Below, piece by piece: positions 22,164 to 50,028 of a stretch of 64,000 bases of DNA. The position numbers and the translations under genes were made by a program. Source of the DNA: a virus (taxonomy: Duplodnaviria > Heunggongvirae > Uroviricota > Caudoviricetes). The notes beneath the pieces are model-generated. The model was not told the DNA's origin, ran no database searches, and was given only the letters and a program-made list of their open reading frames with translations. The stretch is from positions 5,058 through 69,057 of the IMG/VR virus record IMGVR_UViG_3300019845_000023; one strand, 5' to 3'. Each line of letters begins with the position of its first letter. The stretch's first letter is position 1.

Positions 22164-22381
22164 TATGCTTCTCCTCTCAAAATTCTTGGGTCAATCTTAT
22201 CAGTCTCAACATCTATTTGCTTAAAGATAAGCTCAATATTGAGAACATCTGACAAAGCACTTGCTGACGAATCGCCAATAGAAGCTCCCCATTTTAACAT
22301 AGAGTTGTAATAGCCAAGACCTTTGGTAAGAGTTCTTAGTTGTGGTAAGGTAAGGTCAAGCTGTACTTTTATTTCGTCCAT
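22163..22381 (-). CDS. hypothetical protein
   Basis: ORF track. Confidence 0.45.
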   Translation of the reverse strand: MDEIKVQLDLTLPQLRTLTKGLGYYNSMLKWGASIGDSSASALSDVLNIELIFKQIDVETDKIDPRILRGEA

Positions 22382-22893
22382 TATATATCCTCCTTATAAG
22401 CATCAGGCCAGTTCTCCTTTGGACAAAAGCTAACAGGTTTCTTGTATCTGTAAGCCTTTTTGAGTGTACTCCAAACGCCGCCCTTCTGATGTCCATCGAA
22501 AATAGCAAACATAAAGTCACAGTTCTTCGCCATATACTCGTCACGGTCATTGTCGCAACCCCTTACCCAAGCATCATGGATATTAATAACCTCGTCTGCT
22601 CTCTCCATAATCTGATTATATACAGGGTCTTTTCTGCCATAACCTGTACAAGGACAAATACAACTTACCTTAACAGGAAAGCCTGACTGTTTCATTAGTG
22701 TGGCAACATATCCCATTACGATATCTGCGCCACTTGCCATACCTGTGAATACAGTTATTTCGCCGTACTTGTCAATAAATTCTTTCAGGGTATTATGTAT
22801 CCAGTAACGAATGGGAGCCCATTCGTTACCTCTAACATCAAGGGGCAGACCAAGACGCTCTGGTCTGTGCCCCGTCATAGCTATTGTTTTCAT
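22381..22893 (-). CDS. SLOG-superfamily protein (DUF1273 / YpsA-like)
   Basis: IAMTGHRPERLG N-terminus and GxxSGADIV motif match YpsA. Confidence 0.6.
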   Translation of the reverse strand: MKTIAMTGHRPERLGLPLDVRGNEWAPIRYWIHNTLKEFIDKYGEITVFTGMASGADIVMGYVATLMKQSGFPVKVSCICPCTGYGRKDPVYNQIMERADEVINIHDAWVRGCDNDRDEYMAKNCDFMFAIFDGHQKGGVWSTLKKAYRYKKPVSFCPKENWPDAYKEDI

Positions 22894-23600
22894 TAGATTA
22901 CCTCCTTATAGATGAAAGTAATATCTGCTCCATACTTCTTCTTTCTCTTTACCTGTGAATTGCAGCAGTCCTTTAAGGAGCTCTTAATCTGTGGAGCGTC
23001 CTGTCCGCAGTATGCAGAAATGAACTGCGCCGCCTGACCTAATCTGAGGTTCTCAGCAGTATTACCGCCAGTTGTTACTGTAAAGAGAACGCCATTGTCC
23101 TCTATATCAACTGGAACAGAAGAGCTACCCTTCTTCTTGTTCTTCTTCTTCTTTGTTTTAACAGAACCGTCGGAGTTTAATCCGTGGCTCTTATAGACAT
23201 TCTTACGTCTGTTTGAAGAAAGGTCAGGTGTTCCTCTTAAACCATGAATGTACTCAAAAGCGCCAATCTCCTTAAGTCCCTCAATGAAGGTCTCAAGAGC
23301 CTCATCGTGCTCGTTTTCCTTCTTTGAAAGCCAACGGAGGTTCTTTAAAGAGTTGTCACGCTTGTTGTGGTTAATGTGGTCAACTGTAAGAGTCTCATCT
23401 GCTACTGGCATCCAAGTCTTTAATACCAGACGATGAGCAGGAATCCATATCGAACCGAAGCGGAAGATAAGGTATCCCTGACAAGGAGCAGGAAAGATTT
23501 CCTTCTTGTCCTTGTCTCTGAAGCGACCCTGATTGGATACGTATACATTATATTCTTTATTGAACTTCCAACGCTCTATTGAGAAATGAATATTGAACAT
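22893..23600 (-). CDS. HNH homing endonuclease-like protein
   Basis: AHRLV...DHINHNKRDN...NLRWLSKKEN HNH motif. Confidence 0.65.
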   Translation of the reverse strand: MFNIHFSIERWKFNKEYNVYVSNQGRFRDKDKKEIFPAPCQGYLIFRFGSIWIPAHRLVLKTWMPVADETLTVDHINHNKRDNSLKNLRWLSKKENEHDEALETFIEGLKEIGAFEYIHGLRGTPDLSSNRRKNVYKSHGLNSDGSVKTKKKKNKKKGSSSVPVDIEDNGVLFTVTTGGNTAENLRLGQAAQFISAYCGQDAPQIKSSLKDCCNSQVKRKKKYGADITFIYKEVI

Positions 23601-23620
23601 AATTTTTACTTCCTTTCTGA

Positions 23621-23670
23621 TTTTCTATATATATTATATCATAATATATAAAAAAAGTCAAAGAATTTTT
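23621..23670 (-). promoter_or_regulatory. promoter block; -35 lies inside a terminator hairpin
   Basis: same motif. Confidence 0.55.
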
Positions 23671-23681
23671 AGTTCTTTGAC
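23650..23681 (-). terminator. terminator hairpin overlapping promoter -35
   Basis: GUCAAAGAA-loop-UUCUUUGAC then U7. Confidence 0.5.
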
Positions 23682-23693
23682 TCTCAAAATCAG

Positions 23694-24329
23694 TTATGTG
23701 AACTCAATATCATAGATTTTCTTGGAGAATTTATGTCTCTTAAAGGTAATATGACCGCCGATTTCAAGTCTTTCCCAGTCTCCCTCTGATATTTTATAGG
23801 TCTGATATTCTCCTTCCTCATCTACTCCGATAACTTCGTACCATTTATCTGTGCCGCGGCGCCGCTTATCTCCGAGTTGAGGGTTGTCAACATCATATGG
23901 AAGGTCGCAAGGCTTTTCGCAAGGAGTAGACCCCTCTAATCCGCTATTATCTATTGAGCCATTGTTGCACCATTCATTAGTCTTGTAATGATAGCGGGTA
24001 GTATAGTAATACTCATAATGATACTTCTCAGAATGATAGTGTCCATCTGAGTCTGTGTATGCAGACTTGTCAACTACCTTCTTCTGATGTCGTATTTGTT
24101 CTGTCCAAATATCATATGCATCTGCTGGCGGCCACCATTCAGATGTATGTGAGCAAGCTTTATAGCGTTGTACAGGTATATCCCAGTTCCAACGCAGATG
24201 CTCGATTGTCATTGAACCTGTGACTGGTATGGAGAGAAATATGATAATACTCGCAAGTATAGTTATAGCTATTGCTCCGATACAGCCCTCTTCGTGGTCG
24301 TAATAAAACTCTTTAATACGCTCTATCAT
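23694..24329 (-). CDS. membrane-anchored hypothetical protein
   Basis: ORF track; N-terminal TM helix. Confidence 0.5.
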   Translation of the reverse strand: MIERIKEFYYDHEEGCIGAIAITILASIIIFLSIPVTGSMTIEHLRWNWDIPVQRYKACSHTSEWWPPADAYDIWTEQIRHQKKVVDKSAYTDSDGHYHSEKYHYEYYYTTRYHYKTNEWCNNGSIDNSGLEGSTPCEKPCDLPYDVDNPQLGDKRRRGTDKWYEVIGVDEEGEYQTYKISEGDWERLEIGGHITFKRHKFSKKIYDIEFT

Positions 24330-31199: not shown

Positions 31200-32777
31200 T
31201 TAGTCTTCCTTCTTCTCGATTAACTTACTGCCGAGAACGCCACCGAGGATTGACTGAATGTCAATACCTGTTGAGCCCTTCAAGCCATCATTAACCTGAT
31301 TGAGGGTTGTCATTATATCGCCTGTGAGCTTAGCTGTGTTACCTTCACCGTACATAGTGATTTTGTCAATCTGTGCCATAGGTGATGCGATTGCTCCAGC
31401 GATTGCAGGAAGCTGCTCGAAGTAAACCTTGAGTGCTTCAATCTGCATATCCATCTTAGCAGCGTCGCCGTACTGCTTCATAGCTTCAGCCTTCTTGAGG
31501 ATACCCTCGGCTTCAGCCTCTGCCTTAGCAAGGAGAGCTGCCGCTTCAGCTTCACCCTTTGCCTTAATACCTGCTGCTTCAGCTTCCATAGCTGCCTGCT
31601 GTGCGAGAGCGGCTGCCTTACGTGCCTCTGCCTTCTGCTGCTCTTCGTAAAGAGCTGCTTCTGCAGCGACCTTCTTAGCTTCTGCTTCACGCTCTGCCTG
31701 AACCTTCTGAGCCTCTGCCTGACGCTCAATTTCGTTCTTCTTAGCTTCTGCTGACTTCTGACGCTCGAACAAGTCTGCTTCTGCCGCCTTCTGTGTTTCG
31801 ATGAGACGAGCTTCAGCTTCCTGCTGTCTTGCGTACTTGTCTGCTTCTGCCTTCTTCTTGATTTCTGCTTCAAGAGCCTTCTCGGTGATGGCTACATTAC
31901 GCTCCTTCAACTCGATTTCCTTTTCGAGCTTAGCAAGGTTTGCATCAGCGGTTGTAGTCTCAACAGTCTTACGCTGTTCCTGCTCCTGAATCTGGTATGC
32001 AGCGTCGGCTTCTGCCTTCTTGATGTCTGCCTGCTTCTTGAGTTCTGCCTTCTGAATAGCAAGCTCATTCTTCTTCTTAGCGATTTCTGTGTCTGCCGCA
32101 ACCTGTGCATCGTTGGCATCCTTCTGTGCCTTAGCCTGAGCGATTGCGATTTCCTTTTCAGCATCTGCCTTAGCGATTGCCGCCTTCTTCTGAATCTTTA
32201 CGGTATTGTCGATACCGAGGTTCTCGATAAGTCCCTGCTCATCAGAGAAATTCTGAACATTGAATGAAACAATTTCGAGACCCATAGCCCTGAAGTCAGG
32301 ACCTGCATTTTCCGCAACCATTTCTGCGAACTTCTTTCGGTCATTTACCATCTCTTCCAAGGTCATCTGACCGATGATTTCACGCATATTACCTTCAAGC
32401 ACTTCTCGTGCTACCTTCGCGATGTCTGTGACGTCCTTATTAAGGAAGTTCTCTGCCGCGATTGATAAAAGTTCTGGATTGCTGGATACCTTTACGTTTA
32501 CATTACCATCAGCAATTACATTGATGTAGTCTGCCGTTGGAACTGAGTTGGAAGTCTTTACGTCTATCTGAATTAACTGGAGAGTTAACTTATCCAATCT
32601 TTCGAGGAATGGAATCTTGATAGATGACTTACCGATGACGGTCTTTTTACGAAGACCTGAGATGATGAATGCGGTGTCTGGCGGAGCCTTTACATAACCC
32701 GTCGCTATAATTACGATGAGTAAGATGATGGCGAGACCGCCGAGAATGAGTCCAAGATTAGCTAAAATTACTGACAT
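31200..32777 (-). CDS. flotillin-like SPFH/band-7 protein
   Basis: N-terminal TM helix, SPFH core, long Ala/Glu/Lys coiled coil; overlapping ORFs are antisense low-complexity. Confidence 0.6.
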   Translation of the reverse strand: MSVILANLGLILGGLAIILLIVIIATGYVKAPPDTAFIISGLRKKTVIGKSSIKIPFLERLDKLTLQLIQIDVKTSNSVPTADYINVIADGNVNVKVSSNPELLSIAAENFLNKDVTDIAKVAREVLEGNMREIIGQMTLEEMVNDRKKFAEMVAENAGPDFRAMGLEIVSFNVQNFSDEQGLIENLGIDNTVKIQKKAAIAKADAEKEIAIAQAKAQKDANDAQVAADTEIAKKKNELAIQKAELKKQADIKKAEADAAYQIQEQEQRKTVETTTADANLAKLEKEIELKERNVAITEKALEAEIKKKAEADKYARQQEAEARLIETQKAAEADLFERQKSAEAKKNEIERQAEAQKVQAEREAEAKKVAAEAALYEEQQKAEARKAAALAQQAAMEAEAAGIKAKGEAEAAALLAKAEAEAEGILKKAEAMKQYGDAAKMDMQIEALKVYFEQLPAIAGAIASPMAQIDKITMYGEGNTAKLTGDIMTTLNQVNDGLKGSTGIDIQSILGGVLGSKLIEKKED

Positions 32778-32806
32778 ATTTTTGTCCTCCTTAATATTTT
32801 AACATC

Positions 32807-32983
32807 AGCCATCGCAGTGGTCTGGTGTTATTGTCAAGTTGCCTACGGCGAAGTTTCTCGCCACTCTGAGTGCCCGCTCTGTCTCTTCGAGCCGCTTTTC
32901 AAGTTCCCTTATATACGCGACTGTTTGAGGCGGGCTGGTTTCAATCATTGTCTTGAGTTCCCAATCTGTTAACTTCTTATACA
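32807..32983 (-). CDS. hypothetical small protein (59 aa)
   Basis: hand translation. Confidence 0.35.
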
Positions 32984-33361: not shown

Positions 33362-33372
33362 ATGAGTCCTCC

Positions 33373-39014: not shown

Positions 39015-39023
39015 TCCTTTTCA

Positions 39024-39071: not shown

Positions 39072-39082
39072 ATAGCTTTGAC
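39053..39082 (-). terminator. terminator hairpin overlapping promoter -35
   Basis: GUCAAAGC-loop-GCUUUGAC then U-run. Confidence 0.5.
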
Positions 39083-39084
39083 TC

Positions 39085-39351: not shown

Positions 39352-39937
39352 TACAATTCCTCCATATAAAAAAAATAGAGCAGACTAACGTCTACTCTTT
39401 TAAAACGGTAGTTTTTAAGAACACGATTGCCAGTCAATAGCCTTGACTGTTGGCTTAAACTGTAAAGTATAGCGCAATGCTTCCTTAACTGTTTTACTAT
39501 CATTTGATTGTTCAAAAATAGTTGCTGATGCAATCGTAATATAAGAACTCGACTTCCTGCTGGGTCCACCAGACTTTTCCTTCCATTACCCTGAAGGGGG
39601 ATAGGTTCTTATACCTATAAGCAAGTCGTCATGGTGACTAACCAGTGCCATACCATTTCAGATATGGGAATTTTACTATGACGTTTCCGACGCATCGGAT
39701 TCGCCGTCACCCTGTCCGAAGACCATAGGTGACTTCCTGTTATCTAAATTCATATCAAATCTATTATAGAAGATTGCTGATAGAAGTCGAAACCATTTTT
39801 TATTTTAACGAGGGCGCGGCACCACGTCCTCATCTTGCTCAGTGAGCTTTCTTTATTTATAGGACGTTGCTCTACGTCCATTCTCTCGTAAGTCAATACG
39901 AAGACTATTGCCCTCGTACTGTTGTATTTATAAGTGG

Positions 39938-39962
39938 GATTTTACTCCCACCCATACAACAT
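39938..39962 (-). terminator. hairpin after the vWA gene
   Basis: GUGGGA-GUAAAAU-CCCAC then UUAUAAAU. Confidence 0.3.
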
Positions 39963-39967
39963 TTTCA

Positions 39968-41431
39968 TTACTTCCAAGAATATACATCCTTAGAAAGTAT
40001 CTTGACCATAGCCTCATAAGCATTGCACTCGATGAGTTCTCTAAGGTCATTGAATGGACCTACACCAGAACCGCTGCAGTAACTGATGTTATCGTAGATA
40101 GTACCGATGTAGTTGTCCTGACGTGCCTCAACATTCCAGCTTACGACCTTAGTCTCAGGGAGACCAGCCTCGCGAAGCTTCTTGTTCCACTTACCGACAA
40201 TGGAGTCAGCAGTGTCTGGACGTACGTCGTAGTCGAACTGACCGTCTGATATAACTACAAGAGCCTTTGGAACCTCGCGGGTTCTTACAGCAGTCTTATA
40301 GATAAGCTCGAAAGCCTTATCAAGGTTAGTGTTGTAACCCATGTCAGTTGACATTACCTTTCTAAGACACTCCTCAAGTCCCCAGCTATCCTCGAGGGAT
40401 ATGAAGTGAGGATTGTTAGTGAATGTCATATAAAGGTTGTGGTATGCACCCTTATTACGCTGAGCGAAGTAAGTTGCAAGACCAACAGAAGTTGCCATAG
40501 GCTGACCTAACATGGAGCCAGATACATCTGCCATTACGACAACATCGTACTCTCCGCTAACGTAGTTAGGAAGAGCCTTCCACTGAGCTTCGTCTACAGG
40601 GTCAAGATGGTAACGAGAGCTACCATACATATACTTGTACACGATGTCGTATGGGTAAAGAGTAGAAGCATTTACCTTAGCCTCGCCCTTTTCAAGGGAA
40701 GCCTTGTAAGCTGCAAATCTCTCCTGACAACGCTTGTTGTAAGTCTTGATATATCTGCTCATTGCAACAGATGGAACAGACTGGAAGTCTATCTCATCCC
40801 ACTTACCAGCAGACATCTTTGTCTCGACGACGCCGATGTGTGCACGAAGCTTTGCAAGAGTCTTACGATATGTACGCTCGGTAAGACCGAGGTAACGACA
40901 AGCTCTACGACCAAGCTTACGAGTCTCCTGAGAAGAAGTATTGATAGATGGCATCCACTTAGCAAGGATGGAGATAGGCTGGTTCTTAGCCATACCCTCT
41001 GCATCAGCACGAAGCTGCTTGGAGATAAACTCCCATACCTTTGCCTCAATTACTGGATACTTTCCGTTAAGGAAGATGAAAAGGTCATCCCATCTACCTG
41101 TATCAACAATGGTCTGAAGATTGCGGACAATCTTCTGAGGGTCGATACGACCGAGTTCTGCAAGCAGAATACGACCGATACGTCTCTCACCAAGACCACA
41201 GTCTCTGATGTTACGAGCGTAAAGGATAAGGTTATCTGCAAGAGTAGGGTTCTCCTGTCTTGCTGCCTTCCAATCGCTGATTATAGCGGAAGCATCTCTC
41301 TTTCTCATACCACCTATCTTTGCATAGATGTCAAGAAGAGCGCCGCCGTTTGTTGAACTATATGCGAGTCCACCGTTTTCGGTAAGTGTCTGATTAGCCA
41401 TTGCCTTAGCTGCGTTTACGAAATTACTCAT
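39968..41431 (-). CDS. vWA-domain protein with large N-terminal domain (possible TROVE/Ro60-like)
   Basis: MIDAS motif DVSGSM; vWA fold at C-terminus; N-terminal helical domain; start at MSNF after GGAGAG RBS. Confidence 0.6.
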   Translation of the reverse strand: MSNFVNAAKAMANQTLTENGGLAYSSTNGGALLDIYAKIGGMRKRDASAIISDWKAARQENPTLADNLILYARNIRDCGLGERRIGRILLAELGRIDPQKIVRNLQTIVDTGRWDDLFIFLNGKYPVIEAKVWEFISKQLRADAEGMAKNQPISILAKWMPSINTSSQETRKLGRRACRYLGLTERTYRKTLAKLRAHIGVVETKMSAGKWDEIDFQSVPSVAMSRYIKTYNKRCQERFAAYKASLEKGEAKVNASTLYPYDIVYKYMYGSSRYHLDPVDEAQWKALPNYVSGEYDVVVMADVSGSMLGQPMATSVGLATYFAQRNKGAYHNLYMTFTNNPHFISLEDSWGLEECLRKVMSTDMGYNTNLDKAFELIYKTAVRTREVPKALVVISDGQFDYDVRPDTADSIVGKWNKKLREAGLPETKVVSWNVEARQDNYIGTIYDNISYCSGSGVGPFNDLRELIECNAYEAMVKILSKDVYSWK

Positions 41432-41470
41432 TACACATCTCTCCTTCAAGATAATTATTTTTGTTTGCTG

Positions 41471-41523
41471 TTTTTATCTTACTTATATATTATACTATAA
41501 AATATAATTTTTGTCAAATATTT
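41471..41523 (-). promoter_or_regulatory. promoter block variant (TTGACA...TATAAT)
   Basis: diverged block. Confidence 0.45.
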
Positions 41524-42076
41524 AATTGCACCTGTCTTCGTAAAAGGTTGCTACCCTACGAAAAATAGAGTCTGGCGCCGCCACAAATTCCTTCTGCCAC
41601 TCTCTTTTGAAAGTTTTGAAGTATTCATCGACTTCCATATCGCCGAAAACATAAACTCTTATATTATTTCGTCTTGAGAAAACTTGTCTATGATAGACTA
41701 TCTCCTTAAAGACTTCTAAGTCTCGCTTATCCTTAATCGAAATCGTAAGTCCATCAATGCCCCAGAGGTTCTTTTCTCTTTTATAAAGATACTCATATAA
41801 CTCATAAGCATTGGTATAAACATACACCTTTTTGATATTAGGATAAGTTCCTTTTAAAAAGGAAGCTGTCATACAAGGGTCTGCATATGCAAATGGTTCG
41901 CCGCCCGTCAAGAAAATGTTTTCAGCTTCTTCAAGCTCTTCATTCGTAACGACGGGAATTTCATTTACATTATACTGCTTATTGCAACAAAGCGGGCAAT
42001 TTCTATCACAACGATTTGTAATCATTATGTGAATATTACGCTTCGTTATATCTGTCTTTTCATTTAATTGAGCCAT
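41522..42076 (-). CDS. small radical-SAM enzyme (NrdG/QueE-like)
   Basis: CDRNCPLC = CxxxCxxC cluster; GGEP motif. Confidence 0.6.
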   Translation of the reverse strand: MAQLNEKTDITKRNIHIMITNRCDRNCPLCCNKQYNVNEIPVVTNEELEEAENIFLTGGEPFAYADPCMTASFLKGTYPNIKKVYVYTNAYELYEYLYKREKNLWGIDGLTISIKDKRDLEVFKEIVYHRQVFSRRNNIRVYVFGDMEVDEYFKTFKREWQKEFVAAPDSIFRRVATFYEDRCN

Positions 42077-42099
42077 TTAAACTCGTCCTTTCCATTTGA

Positions 42100-42146
42100 T
42101 TTTCTATAAATATTATACTATATTTTATAAAAAAAGTCAAATTTTT
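42100..42146 (-). promoter_or_regulatory. consensus promoter block
   Basis: same motif. Confidence 0.6.
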
Positions 42147-42150
42147 GAGG

Positions 42151-42181
42151 GAAAAATAAGGGCAACGTCGCAACGCTACCC
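42151..42181 (-). terminator. terminator after tRNA-Ser and the tRNA-like RNA
   Basis: GGGUAGCGUUGC..GUUGCCC then UUAUUUUU. Confidence 0.4.
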
Positions 42182-42224
42182 TTACTCAGCTTTCGCTGAT
42201 GGTATCAATTTAAACACGATAGGT

Positions 42225-42316
42225 TTGTGGCGGACCGCCGCCTGTATAAACGGGGGAGTCGAACCCCACGTAACCAATTTCTGAGGGTTTACATTTGGTT
42301 TGCTGAACTATCGTTA
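42225..42316 (-). ncRNA. tRNA-like RNA (T-arm plus acceptor minihelix) between tRNA-Ser and a terminator
   Basis: GGGGUUCGACUCCCC T-arm; acceptor UGUAAAC/GUUUAUA; no D or anticodon arms. Confidence 0.3.
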
Positions 42317-42408
42317 TGGCGACGAAGTGAGGTGTCGAGCCCCATACCGCTCATCACGGTACCAACTGCTTTCAAGGCAGTGCTCAAGGCCGCTTGAGAT
42401 ACTCCGCC
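42317..42408 (-). tRNA. tRNA-Ser (TGA), class II
   Basis: stem ACUGC/GCAGU; loop CUUGAAA; long variable arm; CCA encoded. Confidence 0.55.
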
Positions 42409-42431
42409 ATTATCAAGATACGTTTTTTTCT

Positions 42432-42462
42432 CGTGCCTCTGCCAATTGGGCTACTCCCCGAT
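42432..42462 (-). other. orphan tRNA 5' half (acceptor plus D-arm) fused to leader module AAAAAAACGUAUCUUGAUAAU
   Basis: CGGGGAGUAGCCCAAUUGGCAGAGGC, same D-arm as tRNA 43542-43618. Confidence 0.4.
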
Positions 42463-42620
42463 ATGCTGCCCGAGACAGGAATCGAACCGTTACCCTCCGC
42501 CTTCTTCAGGCGGCGTGCACACCTATGCACTACAAGGGCAGTCTGGTCGGGGAGGATGGGATTCGAACCCACACTCATCGTGCTCCTAACGCATTAATTG
42601 AGTAGCTGACGTATCTTTAT
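42463..42620 (-). other. two degenerate tRNA-like segments (G33 loop, broken T-stem; 3' half without partner)
   Basis: partial cloverleaf elements only. Confidence 0.3.
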
Positions 42621-42696
42621 TGGTGCCGAGGGGGAGAGTCGAACTCCCTACGCCAAGCTCTTCAGGCTTGCGCTCTACCAGTTGAGCTACCTCGGC
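42621..42696 (-). tRNA. tRNA-Phe (GAA), second copy
   Basis: perfect acceptor; loop CUGAAGA. Confidence 0.6.
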
Positions 42697-42720
42697 ATTA
42701 TCAAGACAGTTATACTTATA

Positions 42721-42828
42721 AACTCTACCCGTTGAGCTACGCGACGCGAACGCCACGGTGGGATTCGAACCCACATCCCCCTTTGTGCAAAAAAGAAAAA
42801 GTTTTAAGTGTTTTGCTGAACTGCCTTA
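42721..42828 (-). other. orphan tRNA 5' half next to orphan T-arm/acceptor fragment
   Basis: GCGUCGCGUAGCUCAACGGGUAGAGU then UUAUAAG...UGUCUUGAUAAU. Confidence 0.3.
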
Positions 42829-42829
42829 T

Positions 42830-42906
42830 TGGTCGGGGCGGTGGGATTCGAACCCACAGAATCGTGATTTTGAGTCACGCACGTTTACCAGTTACGTCAC
42901 GCCCCG
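42830..42906 (-). tRNA. class-I-shaped tRNA with Leu anticodon CAA
   Basis: 5-nt variable loop; loop CUCAAAA; A73. Confidence 0.5.
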
Positions 42907-43033
42907 ATATAAAATGCAAAATATGAAGAGGATACCACACCCTGCAGAGGCCCATATTTATTTATATCCCGCACCATAAGCTTCTTCGCGCTTCAATCCG
43001 TCGACTGTCCTCATGGCCATCCGTGCGGTTTTC

Positions 43034-43109
43034 TGGGTGGAAAGATGAGATTCGAACTCACACCTTCATGGGCCACAACCATGCGCTCTACCATTAAGCT
43101 ACTCACCAC
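43034..43109 (-). tRNA. tRNA-His (GTG) with encoded G-1
   Basis: loop UUGUGGC; C73; extra 5' G. Confidence 0.6.
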
Positions 43110-43143
43110 ATCAATTCCGACTTTAACCCAAGTCGGCAGGGTT

Positions 43144-43176
43144 AAATAAAACCAAATCTGCCTCCACACAGTGGAG
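43144..43176 (-). terminator. rho-independent terminator inside tRNA array 2
   Basis: CUCCAC-UGU-GUGGAG then GCAGAUUUGGUUUUAUUU. Confidence 0.45.
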
Positions 43177-43216
43177 TTAGCTGTAGACAATAGCACTGAA
43201 CATAACTATTCCTACT

Positions 43217-43292
43217 TGGTCTCGGTTATAGGACTCGAACCTATGACTTTCTCCTTGTAAGGGAGACACTCTCGCCGCTGAGTTAAACCGAG
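43217..43292 (-). tRNA. tRNA-Val (TAC)
   Basis: loop CUUACAA. Confidence 0.65.
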
Positions 43293-43321
43293 ATTATCAA
43301 GACTCTCTATACCTTGCGGTT

Positions 43322-43394
43322 CCGGAAGGGGGATTCGAACCCCCATATGTACGATTTTAGGTCGTATGACTTAGCCACTTTGTCTATTCTGGAA
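43322..43394 (-). tRNA. class-I-shaped tRNA with anticodon TAA and C33
   Basis: loop CCUAAAA; no encoded CCA. Confidence 0.4.
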
Positions 43395-43541
43395 AGGAAT
43401 ATTGCTGAAGAGTCTTTATTTGGTTCGGGTATGCTTATCGGAGTCAAGTACTCGCAGTTCCTCTTTCGAGGTATTTTCTTCGGAGTAAAGACCTTAAGGT
43501 TCGCGTAACCTCTCGTGCCCTAACCCATATCCGAAACCCGA

Positions 43542-43618
43542 TGGTGCCGTTAGAGGGACTCGAACCCACACTAACCAGTTCCTAAGACTGGCGCCTCTGC
43601 CAATTGGGCTATAACGGC
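43542..43618 (-). tRNA. class-I-shaped tRNA with Leu anticodon TAG
   Basis: perfect acceptor; loop CUUAGGA. Confidence 0.5.
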
Positions 43619-43682
43619 ATTGTTAAACAGTTCGAGTTACGGTCAAACTGAAGGTAAGCACCGATTAAGCAGCCAGATACTC

Positions 43683-43913
43683 CTATTCAGAATAATCAAG
43701 CTTTTCAATTCTTTTCATATCGGAATATGTAACCTGCTTCCAACCACTCTTAGGGTGGTTAAAGGCACACATCCAGCAGGAACAATGAATTTTACCTTTG
43801 GCTAACTTTCCGTCGCAATCACAAAACCAATGATGAGTTTCATCAATGATATGTCTTTTGCGAGCTATGTGTTGTCTTCTCTGATAACGATAGTATGCTC
43901 TATCTCTTTCCAT
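43683..43913 (-). CDS. Cys/His-rich small protein
   Basis: ORF track; embedded in tRNA array. Confidence 0.4.
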   Translation of the reverse strand: MERDRAYYRYQRRQHIARKRHIIDETHHWFCDCDGKLAKGKIHCSCWMCAFNHPKSGWKQVTYSDMKRIEKLDYSE

Positions 43914-44053
43914 TGTGCCGCCCTCCGAAAAATTATAATAACGAATATAGGCAACCCACTACTTACTTTCCTTACCAGCGTAAATTAAGCACCTTCGCTA
44001 CGTATTGCTACTACCTCAGTATTTAATTTACTATGCCCTTCCCTCGATATTCG

Positions 44054-44575
44054 TTACTTAGTAATTCTGTTTGCGATACCAGAAGCAGCGTAGCTGTCTG
44101 GCTTGATAGCAACCTCGAAGCCGCAAGTCTTAATCCAAGAGGTAATCTCAGTAATAAGCTGATTTGTCTTACCTGCGTGACCAATGTCAGCGTGGACAGC
44201 GAAAGTAAATCTTCCGTCATTAGACATTTGCTCAAGGTCAATATCATAGTCGATAAGAGCATAAGCAAGAGCATCTACGAAACCTGTTGCGTTCTCAATA
44301 GAACGAGAAGTCTCTTCCTGTATCTTAGTCTTAAGAACTCTTATCTTTGGTATATCTTGCTTGCGATAGAAGAAAATGCCGCCATCACCGATACGGTGAA
44401 CAGCAATTACTTCCACCATTCTTGTGCACTTGTGGTTCTGGCTATCTGTACCCACAGTTATTTCGTATGAGGCGTTAGGTGCCTTTGCGATGTAGTCGGC
44501 TACAATAGAGCCTATCTGTGAATAACGAACCTTCTCACCATTACCACGAGTAAATATCTTCTCGGTAATCACGGT
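44054..44575 (-). CDS. hypothetical protein (possible RNase H-like fold)
   Basis: ORF; probable GTG start after AAGGAG. Confidence 0.4.
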   Translation of the reverse strand, partial: TVITEKIFTRGNGEKVRYSQIGSIVADYIAKAPNASYEITVGTDSQNHKCTRMVEVIAVHRIGDGGIFFYRKQDIPKIRVLKTKIQEETSRSIENATGFVDALAYALIDYDIDLEQMSNDGRFTFAVHADIGHAGKTNQLITEITSWIKTCGFEVAIKPDSYAASGIANRITK

Positions 44576-44728
44576 TAATCTCTCCTTTATATTCAAATAT
44601 TCAAGACAGTTATGTTAGCTACCTTTTGATTAAAATTCAAATGCTTTTAAAGAATTGCTGGACTGTCTTAGTGGTGATAATACGTGCCGCGGCACCACAG
44701 ACCGCTATATGTGGTCGCACGTATTCTC

Positions 44729-44815
44729 TGGTCGGCTCGGTGGGACTCGAACCCACACGCCCTTGCGGGCACCAGCTCCTTAGGCTGGCGCGTCTGCCAA
44801 TTCCGCCACGAGCCG
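44729..44815 (-). tRNA. tRNA-Leu (AAG), class II
   Basis: long variable arm GCCC-UUGC-GGGC; loop CUAAGGA. Confidence 0.55.
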
Positions 44816-44883
44816 ATTTATCAAGACTCATCTTGTGTTTTTATATGCCCAAAAAACTTTCAGAGTTGCTGCTGAGTCTTATC

Positions 44884-44960
44884 TGGTCGGAGATGCGGGA
44901 CTCGAACCCACGGCCTCTCGCTCCCAAGGCGAGCGCTCTACCAAACTGAGCTAATCCCCG
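44884..44960 (-). tRNA. tRNA-Pro (TGG), second copy
   Basis: loop CUUGGGA. Confidence 0.6.
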
Positions 44961-45030
44961 ATTAATTGGCGGCTTCAGGGACGCTACAAGATAACCAACC
45001 GCCAGAGTTATCACGCACTTAATGTCCCAA

Positions 45031-45107
45031 TGGTCGGCGAGATGGGATTCGAACCCACACTGAATGGATTTTAAGTCCATTGCCTCTGCCTGTTGCGCTA
45101 CTCGCCG
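45031..45107 (-). tRNA. class-I-shaped tRNA with Leu anticodon TAA
   Basis: perfect acceptor; loop CUUAAAA. Confidence 0.5.
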
Positions 45108-45174
45108 ATAAGCCTATTAAATAGGCTACAAGATATAACCCCTTTTACCGCGGGGCAGTCTCCCCAATATAATT

Positions 45175-45227
45175 GGTTGGGGAGATAGGAATTGAACCTA
45201 CAAAAGTGAGTTGCTGATATATCTTAG
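45175..45227 (-). other. orphan tRNA 3' fragment (T-arm plus acceptor CUCCCCA-A-CCA)
   Basis: GUAGGUUCAAUUCCUAU T-arm without a 5' partner. Confidence 0.3.
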
Positions 45228-45303
45228 TGGTCACGCCAGCGAGGCTCGAACTCGCATTTTAGCCTTGAAAGAGCTACTTCCTACACCTGTTAGAAGATGG
45301 CGC
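45228..45303 (-). tRNA. tRNA-Glu (TTC)
   Basis: loop CUUUCAA; Glu-like D region. Confidence 0.5.
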
Positions 45304-45324
45304 GATTCATCAAGATGTGCTTTT

Positions 45325-45400
45325 ACCTCTCATGAGGATTTGAACCTTACCGTCCCCTTTTTGGGGCTGTGCTACCAGATTACACCATAACGCCGAGAGG
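45325..45400 (-). tRNA. tRNA-like gene with atypical anticodon arm (CCCC-AAAAA-GGGG)
   Basis: good acceptor and T-arm; anticodon not assignable. Confidence 0.35.
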
Positions 45401-45456
45401 ATTTAAAATGGCGGCGTTAAAAACTTTAAAGAAAAAGTTGCTGACACATCTTTATT

Positions 45457-45530
45457 TGGTTGCGCAGACAGGACTCGAACCTATATCAACGGATAATGAC
45501 TCCGTTATGCTACCTTTGCACTACCGCGCG
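45457..45530 (-). tRNA. tRNA-Met-like (CAT) with C1-A72 mismatch (initiator-like?)
   Basis: stem ACGGA/UCCGU; loop GUCAUUA. Confidence 0.45.
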
Positions 45531-45539
45531 TTCTCTTTA

Positions 45540-45587
45540 TTTTCTATAATTATTATAGCATAAATTATAAAAAATGTCAAATTTTTG
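45540..45587 (-). promoter_or_regulatory. promoter block TTGACA-17-TATAAT within tRNA array
   Basis: AAATTTGACATTTTTTATAATTTATGCTATAAT. Confidence 0.6.
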
Positions 45588-46381
45588 ATTTCTAAGTCAT
45601 TTCGTAAGCACTCTCACCGCGTGAAGGTAGACTTAATTGAGAGTATTTCTTCAACAATCTTGGGTGCCGCCACATCTCCTGCACACAGGAGACAGGGTAC
45701 TCGAACCCCTCCATCGCCAGTTGCTGAAAGGAATTTCAACCTAATCTCATTAGTTATAAAGCCACTGAGCTGTAGCTATGCGAATAATTTGCCGCAATCA
45801 ACGGGCGACTATTCTAATCGCCGTCATAACCAACACAAGTTATGAACCATTGTAATGTCGTCAGGTTCCCACACTTACGCAGTAAACGCGCCGCTTAACC
45901 ACTTGGTTTAGGTATGTTCATAACCAAGAAATTTTCCCTTTTACATCGTCAGCAGTAGATGTCGTAATTTTATCGGTACTTCCCCGAATGGACATTGCGT
46001 GCCTATCGTACTCACGGTAATGTACGTAACCGCTGCCGTGCCAGCCAATACACGGATTTATACTGCCATCACACAGTCGGGCAGGTCTGTGATGGGTCTC
46101 TGCCCAATTTGGTTTTTGTGGTTTTAAACAGTCCAATGAGTAAACCTCAACTCAACTGTAGAGAATATTTGGTGGTTCGCTCTCTCTCAGCGAAGGTGTA
46201 AAGGGAGTTTAAACCACTTCCTCGTGGGGTTTTAACGTCTTTTCCTTGACAAGTCTCGCCGCAACCAGTACCATTTAAGGTACGCCAATCACTACGGGTT
46301 GCACATCCTTACTTTACCTGCCCAACAGGTCGGCGGTTGGACCCGCCAGTGTCCCTTTTATTCTCTTTAAGTAATTGGCAA

Positions 46382-46456
46382 TGGTGTGGGATAGGAGAAT
46401 CGAACTCCCACCGCCTGTTTGGAAGACAGGAATACTGACCGTTATACGAATCCCAC
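46382..46456 (-). tRNA. tRNA-Gly (TCC)
   Basis: perfect acceptor; loop CUUCCAA. Confidence 0.7.
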
Positions 46457-46469
46457 ATTAGTTCTTATT

Positions 46470-46518
46470 TTTAAGTATAATTTATTATAACATATTCTAA
46501 GAAAAAAGTCAAATTTTT
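46470..46518 (-). promoter_or_regulatory. promoter block variant within tRNA array
   Basis: TTGACT-17-TATAAT. Confidence 0.55.
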
Positions 46519-46528
46519 AATAGTGATT

Positions 46529-46654
46529 GTCTTTGTAGGGGTCTGTCTTCTTCTTATCATGGGTTGCGGCGATGATGTCTGGCATAACCTCTATGAGCTT
46601 CCAAAGAAGTACGGTTACGCAAACAACTATTAGGTACTGCATCAGACAGACCTC
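46529..46654 (-). CDS. small membrane peptide (41 aa)
   Basis: hand translation; AAGGAGG RBS. Confidence 0.35.
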
Positions 46655-46666
46655 CTTTCAAGACAT

Positions 46667-46743
46667 TGGTTTCTCCGCTTGGATTCGAACCAAGGAATGG
46701 CAGTTTTAGAGACTGCTGTCTTAAGCCTCTTGACGACGGAGAA
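46667..46743 (-). tRNA. amber suppressor tRNA (anticodon CTA), Glu/Gln-type body
   Basis: perfect acceptor UUCUCCG/CGGAGAA; stem GCAGU/ACUGC; loop CUCUAAA; D-arm UCGUCAAGAGGCUUAAGACA. Confidence 0.65.
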
Positions 46744-46747
46744 TTAT

Positions 46748-46822
46748 GGTTGCCGCTCTGGGAATCGAACCCAGTAAGACGGAGTTAGAGTCCGTTGTCC
46801 TCGCCAACTAAACGAAGCGGCA
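46748..46822 (-). tRNA. amber suppressor tRNA (anticodon CTA), Glu-type body
   Basis: perfect acceptor UGCCGCU/AGCGGCA; stem ACGGA/UCCGU; loop CUCUAAC. Confidence 0.65.
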
Positions 46823-46907
46823 AAATTCTCCAAGACGCCTTTACATTTACCTTTTAAACATTTTAAGTGTTCTATTGTAAGAAATGATTGCAGGATGCGT
46901 CTTTCAT

Positions 46908-46955
46908 TCTTATAAAATAATTATAACATATTTTATAAAAATTGTCAAATTTTTG
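46908..46955 (-). promoter_or_regulatory. promoter block variant
   Basis: TTGACA...TATAAT. Confidence 0.5.
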
Positions 46956-46963
46956 AGTGCTTA

Positions 46964-47227
46964 TTAGTCTACAGCAGTTGTAGTAGTTGTCTCTGTTGTA
47001 GTCTCTTCTGCCTCAGTTTCTGTGGTAGTAGTTGTTTCTTCGGTAGCCTCAGTTGTCTCCTCTGCTACTGTTGTAGCTTCAGTTGTTTCAGCTTCTGTTG
47101 TTTCAACTTCTGTTGTAACTACTGTTGTGGTTTCACTGTTGCTTCCGCTATCCTTTGATGTATCGCAAGAAACAAAAGTTACAGCCATAGCGCCTGCCAT
47201 AAGACAAGCTAAAATAGCCTTCTTCAT
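46964..47227 (-). CDS. Thr/Glu-rich lipoprotein
   Basis: signal peptide with lipobox-like Cys. Confidence 0.5.
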   Translation of the reverse strand: MKKAILACLMAGAMAVTFVSCDTSKDSGSNSETTTVVTTEVETTEAETTEATTVAEETTEATEETTTTTETEAEETTTETTTTTAVD

Positions 47228-47580
47228 TGTGTTTCACCTCTTTGCTTTTTAAATAAGAACCCTTGCTTGTATATCGAAACCTCGTATTATATCCACAGTC
47301 ACATCGTGATTTACTCCCACACAAGAGGGCTACCATGGAGAAGGGGCACGCCCCGAGATGGGCGGCAATAATCATAGAACGCTATACGAAAAGCATAACG
47401 TACTAAGGAACTCTTTCCACACGTGGTGGATGAGCTATCGTATTTCTACGACCCCGCACAGCGGGTAGAAGTCATAATGACCTCTTAACAGTAATTTTGA
47501 TTGAGCCGCGTTTCCTCTTTTAAGTCTGACTAACTGCGGTAAAAAATCCAGACTTCAAAATTACTTTTAAGAAATCATTA

Positions 47581-47675
47581 TGGCGCGGTCGGGGAGACTC
47601 GAACTCCCACACCGATTGCTCGATTACTCATAGTTTAGCAAACTACTGCCTTACCAAATTAGGCTTACGACCGCA
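47581..47675 (-). tRNA. tRNA-Ser (GCT), class II
   Basis: perfect acceptor; loop UUGCUAA; long variable arm. Confidence 0.55.
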
Positions 47676-47807
47676 TTATCAAGATACGTTTTTTCGATAT
47701 ACGTTGTTCTACCAGTTGAACTACTCCGCCATATTGGCGACGGAGGCAGGACTTGAACCTACACCTACGGCGTGATAGGCAATCTATTGCTTGCTGACGT
47801 ATCTTAG
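47676..47807 (-). other. orphan tRNA 5' half with leader module plus orphan 3' fragment
   Basis: GGCGGAGUAGUUCAACUGGUAGAAC...AAAAAACGUAUCUUGAUAAU; T-arm GUAGGUUCAAGUCCUGC. Confidence 0.35.
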
Positions 47808-47809
47808 TT

Positions 47810-47887
47810 TGGTGTGCCTGATGGGACTCGAACCCATGACCCCCTGATTAAAAGTCAGGTGTTCTATGCCAACTGAACTACAGGCAC
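47810..47887 (-). tRNA. tRNA-Lys (TTT)
   Basis: perfect acceptor; loop CUUUUAA. Confidence 0.7.
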
Positions 47888-47986
47888 ATTAACATCCGCT
47901 GAGCATCTTATTGGAACGCTTTCACCATGCGAGACCTCTATTGTTTATTTGCTGGCAGAATTTGAACCATTAACCATAGCGAATAT

Positions 47987-48062
47987 TTGGTGGGACGCCT
48001 GAGATTCGAACTCAGATAAGCTCGGTTATGAGCCGAGTGCACTAACCATTGTACTAACGTCC
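47987..48062 (-). tRNA. tRNA-Ile2/Met (CAT), Ile-derived body
   Basis: anticodon arm CUCGG-CUCAUAA-CCGAG parallels tRNA-Ile(GAT) at 5981. Confidence 0.55.
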
Positions 48063-48119
48063 CATTAAAGAAAGGAAAGGGGCATACTTTCAAGATGGCT
48101 ATGCCAGACCACTAAGTTA

Positions 48120-48193
48120 TTGGCTTCGGCAAAGGGAGTCGAACCCCTATCAACAGAGCCAAAATCTGTTGTCCTACCATTAGACGATACCGA
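48120..48193 (-). tRNA. tRNA-Gln (TTG)
   Basis: loop UUUUGGC; D region shared with Gln(CTG) at 4532. Confidence 0.6.
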
Positions 48194-48222
48194 AATCTAT
48201 GGAGTCATAAAGACTCCAAATA

Positions 48223-48582: not shown

Positions 48583-48637
48583 TTTCTCACCTCACTATAA
48601 ATATTATATCATATTTTATTTAAAAAGTCAAATTTTT
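48583..48637 (-). promoter_or_regulatory. promoter block variant
   Basis: TTGACT...TGATATAAT. Confidence 0.55.
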
Positions 48638-49092
48638 GAAAACTCTTGAATATCATAATCGTGGTTTCTAAACCACTTATGTATCATAAGTCTCTCAGAA
48701 CAAAGCTGTTCAGGTTTCTCATAAACTATGAGAGCGGCAACAGGTTCTTCTTCAAAATGTAAGAAGTCTTGAACCCGATGTCCAATGCTTTCAAACCTCT
48801 CCATTATATTATCATAATTGAGGTATTTGAGCTGTAAATAATAATCGTGCAGAAAGTTACAAGTGTTTGGATTCTGCTTACATGACTTGCCGCCACACTC
48901 AGCGATGTTCTGAAAATCTGGTACAAATGGCTCTGCTCGGCACCCAATAAGGACACCATTCTTATCAACATAAGTTGACTTCATATCGCCGTTAATATGA
49001 TACCAAGCAGGGTCAGATATTGCTGTACTTAATGGAATGATATTAGGAGTAAAGAATCTTATTTGGTAAAAATAAGATGTTACTATTTTCAT
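48628..49092 (-). CDS. hypothetical protein
   Basis: ORF track. Confidence 0.5.
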   Translation of the reverse strand: MKIVTSYFYQIRFFTPNIIPLSTAISDPAWYHINGDMKSTYVDKNGVLIGCRAEPFVPDFQNIAECGGKSCKQNPNTCNFLHDYYLQLKYLNYDNIMERFESIGHRVQDFLHFEEEPVAALIVYEKPEQLCSERLMIHKWFRNHDYDIQEFSKI

Positions 49093-49223
49093 TCCTCGCC
49101 GCGACCTTCACCTTCAAGGGATACTATCTTCTCCCAACACTCAGGGCAAAGTGTAGCCTCTTCATCAACTGATTCAAAAGGCTTGCCGCACTCTTCACAG
49201 ATTACTTCATATGTATCAGCCAT
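49089..49223 (-). CDS. zinc-ribbon peptide (44 aa)
   Basis: hand translation; CEECG...CPEC. Confidence 0.4.
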   Translation of the reverse strand: MADTYEVICEECGKPFESVDEEATLCPECWEKIVSLEGEGRGEE

Positions 49224-49239
49224 TTAAAATCGCTCCTTT

Positions 49240-49290
49240 TTAATAATGTAATAATATTATATTATATTTTATTTAAAAAGTCAAATTTTT
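49240..49290 (-). promoter_or_regulatory. promoter block variant
   Basis: TTGACT...TATAAT. Confidence 0.5.
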
Positions 49291-49591
49291 AATTGGTCTT
49301 TTCAGCGAAAGTCCAAGCCTTTCTTCCGTCAGCAAGAATATAAATTCCATTTATCTGGAACTTCTCAGGCTTCTCATAAACAATCTCAACCTTGTGCTTA
49401 ACGCCGTCAAGTCTGTCCTGCTCAAGGCTTGTTCTGAACTCCTTACCGCTCATCTTAAAAATTTGATTGTCGGTAACTTTAAGTGATGTTACCCCATTCT
49501 CATCTTCAACTTTTTCGAGCATTGTTACATTCATAAGAACCTTAGACTTTACTATATCCCAAGGCTGGAATCCTCTCTGTTTTAAATCCAT
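49289..49591 (-). CDS. hypothetical protein
   Basis: ORF track. Confidence 0.5.
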   Translation of the reverse strand: MDLKQRGFQPWDIVKSKVLMNVTMLEKVEDENGVTSLKVTDNQIFKMSGKEFRTSLEQDRLDGVKHKVEIVYEKPEKFQINGIYILADGRKAWTFAEKTN

Positions 49592-50028
49592 TACTTTTCC
49601 TCCTTAAAATCGTTCCTTAGTTTCATCAAGGTGTAACCAAGCTGATTACGACCTACGCCGCGGCAACTGGGACAAGTGCATATACCCCAGTATCTATCGT
49701 GCCAAGTTGTAGCTTCAACAAGAGTCTCATCACCAGTTTCAAGGAGAGCTTCCTTTAACTCTGGGTTTTGAGTAAACTTCTCATAAAGAACATCGTACAT
49801 AACTTGGTCTTTAACCTGTTCCCAGTCAGGACGAAGGTTTGCACTTCTACCCATAGACTTAGCAAAAGAAGGTGGTCTGTCCGCATACTTCTCTGCATTT
49901 TCAGGCTCTTTCTGTGATTGAAATGCCGCCTCGGAGTTAGTAAAATGAATACCCTTATAAGTAAAAGAGGACGCATAAAAGTTACTTAAGAAACCATATT
50001 TGCCTATATTACCTGTAAAATGTATCAT
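49591..50028 (-). CDS. NADAR (YbiA-like) domain protein
   Basis: collinear match to E. coli YbiA: YGFLSNF, SEAAFQSQK, WEQVKDQVM, NQLGYTLMKLR. Confidence 0.8.
   Translation of the reverse strand: MIHFTGNIGKYGFLSNFYASSFTYKGIHFTNSEAAFQSQKEPENAEKYADRPPSFAKSMGRSANLRPDWEQVKDQVMYDVLYEKFTQNPELKEALLETGDETLVEATTWHDRYWGICTCPSCRGVGRNQLGYTLMKLRNDFKEEK

Follow-up and report, generated by a model that had tools for sequence, protein, structure and literature searches.

The virus record IMGVR_UViG_3300019845_000023 (IMG/VR; Caudoviricetes) includes a 64,000-nucleotide stretch (positions 5,058 to 69,057 of the record; hereafter the window, whose own numbering we use) that encodes a Pol-beta superfamily nucleotidyltransferase (NTase), a macrodomain protein, a NADAR protein, and a YpsA-type SLOG protein. 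The original prediction had placed these four genes in one ADP-ribose (ADPr)-related module and read it as a counter-defense set against ADP-ribosylating toxins such as DarTG. As a whole, this interpretation is partly supported. The four genes probably belong to two interleaved, already described accessory systems, with genes under individual early promoters, and do not constitute a four-gene module. The first would be an RNA-repair system, in which the NTase, a putative RlaP enzyme, acts with a TROVE/von Willebrand factor A (vWA) protein, Rnl1- and Rnl2-type ligases, a Pnkp-like kinase and phosphatases, a cyclic-phosphate-processing receiver (cREC), 44 tRNAs, and a transfer-messenger RNA (tmRNA). 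The second would be an NAD+/ADPr system. Here, NADAR most likely acts like AdfN and takes ADPr off the guanines of DNA or RNA; the macrodomain would bind ADPr and hydrolyze some ADPr derivative or adduct by chemistry that differs from that of DarG because a Gln replaces the catalytic Lys; and YpsA-SLOG may bind or cleave a nucleotide derived from NAD+ or ADPr. The activities of RlaP, AdfN, and AdfM are taken from the literature (PMC12776372, PMC11825919, and PMC13309987), and we infer the actual substrates of the macrodomain, NADAR, SLOG, and NTase proteins in this phage.

Four genes lie in four transcription units

We scanned the gene content of the window with Pfam, NCBIfam, PHROG, and PADLOC models; the Pfam scans took in nearly all minus-strand open reading frames (ORFs) of at least 60 amino acids (aa). 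All credible genes of the window lie on the minus strand, as do the promoters, tRNAs, and tmRNA whose coordinates are given below. The four ORFs were found where they had been predicted: the NTase at 37138-37980, the macrodomain at 38045-38527, NADAR at 49591-50028, and SLOG at 22381-22893. Each begins with an ATG behind a GGAGG-type ribosome-binding site and ends in TAA or TGA. Profile searches with each protein gave no assignment to an unrelated family, and all four family calls hold.

A pattern search of the window recovered near-identical promoters, 39 of them on the minus strand and 1 on the plus strand, with the consensus AAAAATTTGAC[TA]-17 nt-TGnTATAAT-ATnTATAGAAAA and conserved flanks. 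We infer that expression from these consensus promoters is early. One of them (TTGACT-17-TGnTATAAT; 38012-38040) sits within the 64-nt gap between the macrodomain and NTase genes and thus lets transcription of the NTase start independently; the two genes are not separated by a terminator-like site. The macrodomain unit starts upstream (38524-39064) with a promoter at 39036-39064, followed by orf63 (38823-39014), orf99 (38524-38823), and then the macrodomain gene, whose ATG overlaps the orf99 stop codon. Neither orf63 nor orf99 matched a family in the Pfam scans, and orf99 is not kept beyond the closest relative. NADAR has a promoter at 50059-50087, and a unit made of an HNH endonuclease gene and SLOG has one at 23633-23661. 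Since a separate promoter precedes the unit of each gene, the four genes occupy four transcription units among ~39, spread across 27.6 kb, and the proposed single module falls apart at this level.

Several promoters follow a hairpin whose 3' arm holds the -35 box. BLAST comparisons of the window with its relatives pick up this 50-80-nt promoter element at scattered sites. In this the elements resemble the mobile promoter/stem-loop cassettes known from T4-type phages, and such repeated cassettes may cause a limited set of accessory genes to be shuffled.

The NTase is a probable RNA-repair enzyme of the RlaP family

The sole Pfam match of the 280-aa NTase was to RlaP (PF10127), at 17.6 bits (E = 3e-3) and under the 23-bit cut-off, and the PHROG "nucleotidyltransferase" family phrog_388 matched at 1e-11. 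A peptide-pattern search with the NTase alone found one close relative only, and an alignment was needed as the query; a search of 5.8 billion proteins then gave 188 relatives. PF10127 was matched (E <= 0.01) by 16 of 26 aligned relatives, at best with 4e-7. Several homologs bear precomputed PF10127 hits, and two homologs are fused to a metallophosphoesterase. The call of a Pol-beta enzyme was borne out by the motif G34-[AS]-Q-N-Y ... S45-D46-x-D48-x-K50 ... K82-D83, which recurs in 26 relatives; the catalytic residues G34, A/S35, D46, D48, and D83 are invariant in the alignment of 26 sequences.

The AlphaFold model of the NTase (predicted local distance difference test [pLDDT] 94) has a large helical C-terminal domain. 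Its best viral fold match was the nucleotidyltransferase of Bacillus phage BCD7 (template modeling [TM] score 0.83), and its PDB fold matches were weak (TM 0.3-0.45) and limited to two-domain enzymes of the KNTase, ANT(4'), and HalB type. A PDB sequence search found no solved relative. When compared by hhalign with T4 NrdC.11, a protein named as RlaP (PMC12776372), the catalytic core aligned (probability 66%, E = 6e-5). The window NTase thus shares with the RlaP proteins of P. fluorescens, P. aeruginosa, and T4 the catalytic motif (G-S-x-x-Y ... S-D-x-D-x-K ... D), a two-domain architecture, and a neighborhood of RNA ligases, polynucleotide kinase (PNK), and TROVE proteins, but it differs from them in belonging to a divergent clade with a sub-threshold PF10127 score. 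Its cultured relatives are Bacillota phages only, at no more than 34% identity.

Structure prediction had been proposed as a way to tell whether the NTase is CD-NTase-like or MNT-like; it is neither, because fold and size exclude both. Neither cGAS nor DncV was among the top 50 PDB fold matches and PADLOC gave no hit, which speaks against a CD-NTase. An MNT domain has ~100-140 aa, compared to 280 aa here, and no HEPN neighbor was found.

The genes around the NTase point to RNA repair. Our neighborhood counts cover the best 80 of 520 RlaP viral loci and the best 80 of more than 558 macrodomain viral loci. Among 80-83 viral NTase loci, 44 have a PNK, phosphatase, or Rnl1 gene nearby, 28 an Rnl2-like ligase, 13 a cREC, and 21-33 a DUF2828/DUF7788 TROVE-like protein; Thg1 adjoins one distant relative. 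The same set of RNA-ligase and end-healing genes is found within the window. Pseudomonas RlaP extends damaged RNA by one or two nucleoside monophosphates at the 3'-OH and leaves DNA and protein unmodified (PMC12776372). We suggest, from its PF10127 match, motif, fold, and neighbors, that the NTase is a divergent RlaP with a role in RNA 3'-end repair. Nothing ties it to ADPr. The proposed ADPr link therefore fails for the NTase and stands for the macrodomain and NADAR and, as a prediction, for YpsA-SLOG; one survey places all three in a large-phage NAD+/ADPr network (PMC9503650).

Directly downstream of the NTase lies a 385-aa ORF (35742-36899) with a Met-rich low-complexity C terminus and no family match. 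It holds the same position in two related loci (90% identical in L001 and 44% in L004) and is present in eight NTase loci.

NTase and macrodomain genes are recurrent but loose neighbors

The NTase and macrodomain genes are indeed adjacent, with the macrodomain first on the transcribed strand. Related loci show both orders: the macrodomain gene is directly upstream of the NTase in L001, L006, and L004, as in the window, and directly downstream, with a 4-nt overlap, in L002, L003, L007, and L008. Further adjacent arrangements occur in L011, L012, L059, and L103. After clustering of NTases at 70% identity, 6 of 40 RlaP lineages have a same-strand macrodomain gene no more than 500 bp away, which exceeds chance for genomes of several hundred genes. 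Direct RlaP-macrodomain adjacency of this recurrent kind is not mentioned in the accessible parts of the large-phage surveys (PMC7824862 and PMC9503650) and is mildly new.

Three points weigh against our reading of two separate systems. First, recurrent adjacency in both orders hints at a tighter link between the NTase and the macrodomain than such a reading provides. Second, a P-loop kinase of the AAA_28 (NadR-kinase-like) type, which adjoins NADAR in the window (50122-50685; PF13521, 1.6e-10), has a 63% identical copy in L002 (7115-7675), and in L002 and L003 it lies two genes upstream of the NTase-macrodomain pair. This kinase hence shifts between the NADAR and RlaP-macrodomain neighborhoods and blurs the boundary of the two systems. 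Third, a KptA, ADP-ribosyltransferase (ART), or Nudix gene could lie outside the 64-kb window.

We therefore weighed the idea that RlaP and the macrodomain protein are a pair that repairs ADP-ribosylated RNA, in which the macrodomain would free an RNA end or ribose of ADPr before RlaP rebuilds the 3' end for ligation. The adjacency just described favors such a pair, all the more since stop and start codons overlap in one lineage. Macrodomains can take ADPr off RNA phosphate ends (PMC11833690), and the pair adjoins the TROVE-like protein and a tRNA array. Yet ~85% of RlaP lineages have no adjacent macrodomain gene, most macrodomain loci have no RlaP, and a strong promoter separates both genes in the window, in a region where promoter cassettes shuffle genes. 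Nor is the pairing a feature of bacterial genomes, where it was found in 2 of 80 loci, both on phage-like contigs of metagenome-assembled genomes (MAGs); the bacterial neighbors (5'-3' exonuclease, Nudix, and YezG immunity proteins) varied by lineage and were uninformative. The two genes also do not travel as a unit, since the NTase of L001 shares 96% identity with that of the window and its macrodomain only 64%. L001 aligns with 31492-44815 of the window, and from the NTase onward its proteins are 90-99% identical (orf385, 90%; Rnl2, 98%; SPFH, 99%), compared to 64% for its macrodomain and DUF2828 proteins. This step in identity indicates a recombination boundary near the promoter between the macrodomain and NTase genes. 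We regard a dedicated pair as unlikely, and the adjacency of the two genes as partly meaningful.

The macrodomain belongs to a "GQ" subtype that has a Gln in place of the catalytic Lys

The longest ORF around the macrodomain gene begins at 38560. Because homologs begin with MII... and the stop codon of the upstream ORF overlaps the ATG at 38527, 38045-38527 (160 aa) is the better gene model, and the start originally chosen was right. Pfam gave no match for the window sequence itself, although many homologs carry PF01661. The protein matched a PHROG "phosphatase" family at 8e-35 and, in a PDB sequence search, the DarG macrodomain of Mycobacterium tuberculosis. The PADLOC DarG model covered the whole domain at 4e-16, the NCBIfam DarG model matched as well, and BT1257 was the best profile match (2e-16). 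With the protein alone, a peptide-pattern search recovered no relatives, and an alignment query was needed. The AlphaFold model (pLDDT 95) fits DarG, TARG1, Poa1p, and BT1257 equally well (TM 0.69-0.78, probability 1.0), with E = 1e-10 and TM 0.74-0.77 for the DarG structures 5m3i and 5m3e. The macrodomain call is therefore sound, and the fold is of the DarG class.

To place the protein within this class, we compared 168 family members drawn from viral and bacterial loci. N21, equivalent to DarG N22 and AdfM N23, is invariant. By contrast, the Lys that is catalytic in DarG (K80) and AdfM (K78) (PMC13309987), and that corresponds to TARG1 K84, aligns to Q80 in a HMMER profile alignment or to D81 in a MAFFT alignment. 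Of the 168 members, 163 have Gln at position 80, and a single one has Lys at position 81. Because Gln replaces Lys family-wide, we assign the window protein to a distinct "GQ" subtype of stand-alone, BT1257-like macrodomains within the DarG/TARG1/Poa1p class, and reject it as a DarG2/AdfM ortholog. It resembles AdfM (PhiKZ gp104) and DarG2 in structural class, in standing alone without a DarT-binding domain, and in the conserved Asn common to all (hhalign probability 98%, 28-29% identity), but it lacks their catalytic Lys. With BT1257 (2fg1/2afc) it shares the motifs N-x-x-G-Q and G-C-G-L-x-G-G-x-W, and with Poa1p (6lfq) the His before the Asn; Poa1p S30 and TARG1 (4j5q) K84 and D125 are not kept. 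The many invariant polar residues that ring the binding loops suggest an enzyme rather than a passive reader. We regard the protein as ADPr-related but not of DarG type. The family-wide Lys-to-Gln substitution, like the adjacency to RlaP, is absent from what the two large-phage surveys (PMC7824862 and PMC9503650) cover in their accessible parts.

Counter-defense by all four genes would have NADAR act on the DarT1 guanine mark and the macrodomain on the DarT2 thymine mark, with the NTase and SLOG assisting. On the macrodomain side, this proposal draws on DarG being both the closest defense model and the source of the closest solved structures, and on the orphan phage proteins AdfM (a macrodomain) and AdfN (a NADAR) being proven anti-DarT factors (PMC13309987 and PMC11825919). 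The absence of the DarG/AdfM catalytic Lys across the family argues against it, as do the RNA-repair affiliation of the NTase and the placement of the genes in separate units 11-14 kb apart. The usual neighbors of the macrodomain, moreover, are NAD+ salvage genes. In 80 viral macrodomain loci, the direct neighbors were NAMPT (10), NAD synthase (9), and PARP+WGR (8). The 6-kb flanks also held RlaP (12), metallophosphoesterases, and NADAR (12-13; 13 of 80 loci when counted as NADAR within 6 kb of the macrodomain family).

These neighbors bring in a further possibility, that the macrodomain, NADAR, and SLOG chiefly destroy or recycle small, soluble ADPr derivatives (immune signals such as cyclic ADPr isomers, ADPr-1''-phosphate, or NADase products returned to NAD+) and do not act on nucleic acid adducts. 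In 9-14 loci, NAMPT and NAD synthase directly adjoin a member of the macrodomain family; the fold of the family resembles DarG and Poa1p, an ADPr-1''-phosphate phosphatase, to an equal degree, and the His equivalent to Poa1p H23 is near-invariant. The absence of the DNA-deconjugating Lys also fits, NADAR adjoins the NadR-like AAA_28 kinase with a weak PnuC-like fragment nearby, and an explicit prediction to this effect has been published (PMC9503650). However, no NAMPT, NadE, or Nudix gene was found in the window, and all phage NADARs tested act on guanine-linked ADPr in nucleic acid (PMC11825919 and PMC11125620). We consider a mainly soluble substrate range a real but tentative option. Our preferred reading, two interleaved systems, leaves the substrate of the macrodomain as either a derivative or an adduct.

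We put little weight on a bolder proposal, in which the "GQ" macrodomain would be a distinct catalytic subtype that, beside RlaP, forms a two-enzyme route for ADP-ribosylated RNA, the macrodomain removing ADPr and RlaP rebuilding the 3' end. If true, phage RNA repair would extend from nuclease damage to ADP-ribosyl damage. The macrodomain family occurs in 728 GenBank phage records under the labels "phosphatase" or "macro domain protein"; the "GQ" subtype is present in more than 700 sequenced phages, mostly as a "phosphatase," without the Lys that defines AdfM, the sole phage macrodomain whose role is proven. Identification of the substrate of the "GQ" subtype would explain what a gene very common in phages does. 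The window and its relatives add many members to this subtype, together with a divergent RlaP clade.

NADAR and SLOG in relation to DarT toxins

The assignment of a clear NADAR/YbiA homolog was confirmed. PF08719 matched the predicted ADP-ribosyl N-glycohydrolase at 1.3e-30 (107 bits, 35-bit cut-off) and TIGR02464 matched above its cut-off, with Phage_30_3 below. The protein aligns with E. coli YbiA (2b3w; 2e-18) and PnNADAR, and keeps the S-E-x-x-F-Q-x-x-K motif with E33 and K40 aligned to both. The corresponding catalytic residues of T4 AdfN, E36 and K43, have been mutated (PMC11825919). Like the orphan phage NADARs (AdfN [T4 gp30.3], Bas32, and Bas60) and YbiA, the window protein thus has the family fold and a Glu/Lys pair seven residues apart, and like AdfN it is a stand-alone early gene. 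Its identity to the NADARs of SPbeta-like, AR9/PBS1, and T5-like phages ranges from 41 to 50%, with 41% for the T5-like proteins. It differs from AdfN in being nearer the YbiA branch and in having a CxCxxC insert before the C-terminal helix. This insert, WGICTCPSCRGVG at residues ~115-125, stands in place of the YbiA segment WGD-GGHGKG.

Phage NADARs of three unrelated groups strip guanine-linked ADPr and counter DarTG1 (PMC11825919), and NADARs act likewise on RNA, where they undo the ADP-ribosylation of guanine (PMC11833690). By analogy, the window NADAR is plausibly an anti-DarT1 protein and a reasonable candidate for such a factor in a Bacillota phage. Its intact catalytic residues also favor a counter-defense set. 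Nevertheless, E. coli YbiA and T4 gp30.3 alone did not rescue cells from DarT1, so YbiA-type NADARs gave no protection in that setting (PMC11125620), and NADAR is the only one of the four with an experimental anti-DarT precedent, through AdfN (PMC11825919). Published outcomes against DarT1 vary with the NADAR subtype (PMC11125620 and PMC11825919). A distance of 11.1 kb, which includes 19 tRNA genes, separates NADAR from the macrodomain gene.

SLOG and NADAR are on opposite sides of the NTase, and the distance from SLOG to the NTase is 14.2 kb. Its classification as YpsA-type comes from Pfam (PF06908, 4.9e-9, 36.8 bits against a 27.7-bit cut-off, model positions 1-154 of 168), in agreement with the original call, and a PDB sequence search found no solved relative. 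It was close to the NTase or macrodomain gene in only 2-3 of 160 viral loci, and this lack of linkage to the other three genes further weakens the case for a set. An NAD+/ADPr role of YpsA-SLOG is a published prediction (PMC9503650). The SLOG start is overlapped by the HNH homing endonuclease gene that leads its unit (22893-23600; HNH_3, 4.5e-10). Taken together, a counter-defense set of all four genes is improbable: the idea is plausible for NADAR, weak for the macrodomain, unproven for SLOG, and wrong for the NTase.

Several observations concern the surroundings of NADAR. A 44-aa zinc-ribbon ORF (49089-49223) lies two genes downstream. A PDB sequence search with the AAA_28 kinase gave nothing useful. 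Next to the Pnkp-like gene, and ~2 kb away from NADAR and the AAA_28 kinase, a 74-aa ORF (52305-52529) is weakly similar to the C-terminal region of PnuC, the nicotinamide-riboside transporter (25.1 bits, 27.3-bit cut-off). In L165, a related phage-like contig of 163 kb from a rumen Erysipelotrichaceae MAG, a macrodomain gene sits among homologs of the NADAR-flanking orf164, orf100, and orf154 (3321-8824), and the 10.5 kb examined held no NADAR or AAA_28 gene. We considered whether the macrodomain had replaced NADAR at the same site in L165 and rejected this; the neighborhood is shared but shuffled, with no precise displacement.

An RNA-repair gene set in a tRNA-rich accessory region

The source of the window is a large phage, and the window is an early-type, single-strand accessory region; the host is probably a gut or rumen member of the Bacillota. 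Related contigs extend to 120-310 kb. When positions 36000-42000 were searched against GenBank phages for near-identical DNA, no match was found. Beyond the NTase, the predicted RNA-repair genes include a DUF2828/DUF7788 plus vWA protein, similar to Ro/TROVE RNA-repair scaffolds (39968-41449; PF11443, 2e-32; PF25043, 1e-15; phrog_850, 1e-113), for which a PDB sequence search gave nothing useful. Two RNA ligases are encoded, one of Rnl2 type (33373-34305; PF09414, 8e-28) and one of T4 Rnl1 type (18261-19418; PF09511, 8.5e-14). A fusion of a Pnkp-like AAA_33 kinase and an HD phosphohydrolase lies at 51397-52320 (PF13671, 1e-18; PF01966, 4e-6; TIGR04075 Pnkp, 2.7e-15 over part of the model), and a cREC (11618-11917; PF20274, 1.1e-19) is found beside a further AAA_33 kinase (11934-12464; PF13671, 4e-13). 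The Pfam scans also found metallophosphoesterases and an SPFH/flotillin-like protein (31200-32777; PF01145, 1e-21; PF15975, 6e-7).

The 44 tRNA genes of the window form two arrays. The first, of 19 genes including two CTA-anticodon suppressors, divides the macrodomain/NTase block from the NADAR block (42465-48194), and the second has 25 genes (2884-8918). The phage also encodes its own tmRNA (12482-12827), with the tag ADYAIAA.

Two large-phage surveys (PMC7824862 and PMC9503650) list Macro, NADAR, YpsA-SLOG, cREC, RlaP, TROVE, Rnl1/Rnl2, PNK, and tRNAs as components, and state that Macro, NADAR, SLOG, and Nudix co-occur above chance as stand-alone genes in early regions with RNA repair. The jumbo-phage NAD+/ADPr and RNA-repair networks (Iyer, Burroughs, Aravind et al., 2021, 2022) have the same parts list as the window. 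The window differs from them in having no KptA, Nudix, ART, sirtuin, or NAMPT gene within 64 kb. In the Pfam scans, no Nudix, NAMPT, NadE, or sirtuin was found in the window, and the Pfam and PADLOC scans found no ART, DarT, or PARP domain in its ORFs. Because the surveys already describe the parts list, the gene set of the window is a known one and not a new anti-toxin module. It provides a clean example of a large phage that packs RNA-repair and ADPr-processing genes into a tRNA-rich accessory region, each with an early promoter.

This gene set also bears on whether the macrodomain serves KptA/Tpt1-dependent RNA healing, by dephosphorylating the ADPr-1''-phosphate that arises from NAD+-based removal of a 2'-phosphate. 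A Poa1p-like fold, the PHROG annotation "phosphatase," and the RNA-repair setting fit such a role, and the route is described for large phages in both surveys (PMC7824862 and PMC9503650). Against this, the Pfam scans of window ORFs found neither KptA/Tpt1 (PF01885) nor a 2H phosphoesterase. Furthermore, the Rnl1/Rnl2 plus Pnkp route encoded here leaves no 2'-phosphate, as in the T4 pathway. We judge a KptA-linked role very unlikely and retain the two-system reading.

The two suppressor tRNAs, at 46667-46743 and 46747-46822, lie in tandem, and the relative L002 has a called gene with an in-frame TAG (7656-7931). Both features are suggestive of TAG recoding among these phages; the NTase, macrodomain, NADAR, and SLOG genes, with their TAA or TGA stops, would be untouched by it. 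A YkuK-type RNase H-like protein is encoded inside the first tRNA array (44054-44596; PF04308, 2e-41), and a small radical-SAM protein is encoded directly upstream of the TROVE-like gene (41522-42076). Homing-endonuclease genes are found elsewhere in the accessory region, with two GIY-YIG-like genes (56875-57264 and 57903-58232) in addition to the HNH gene upstream of SLOG.

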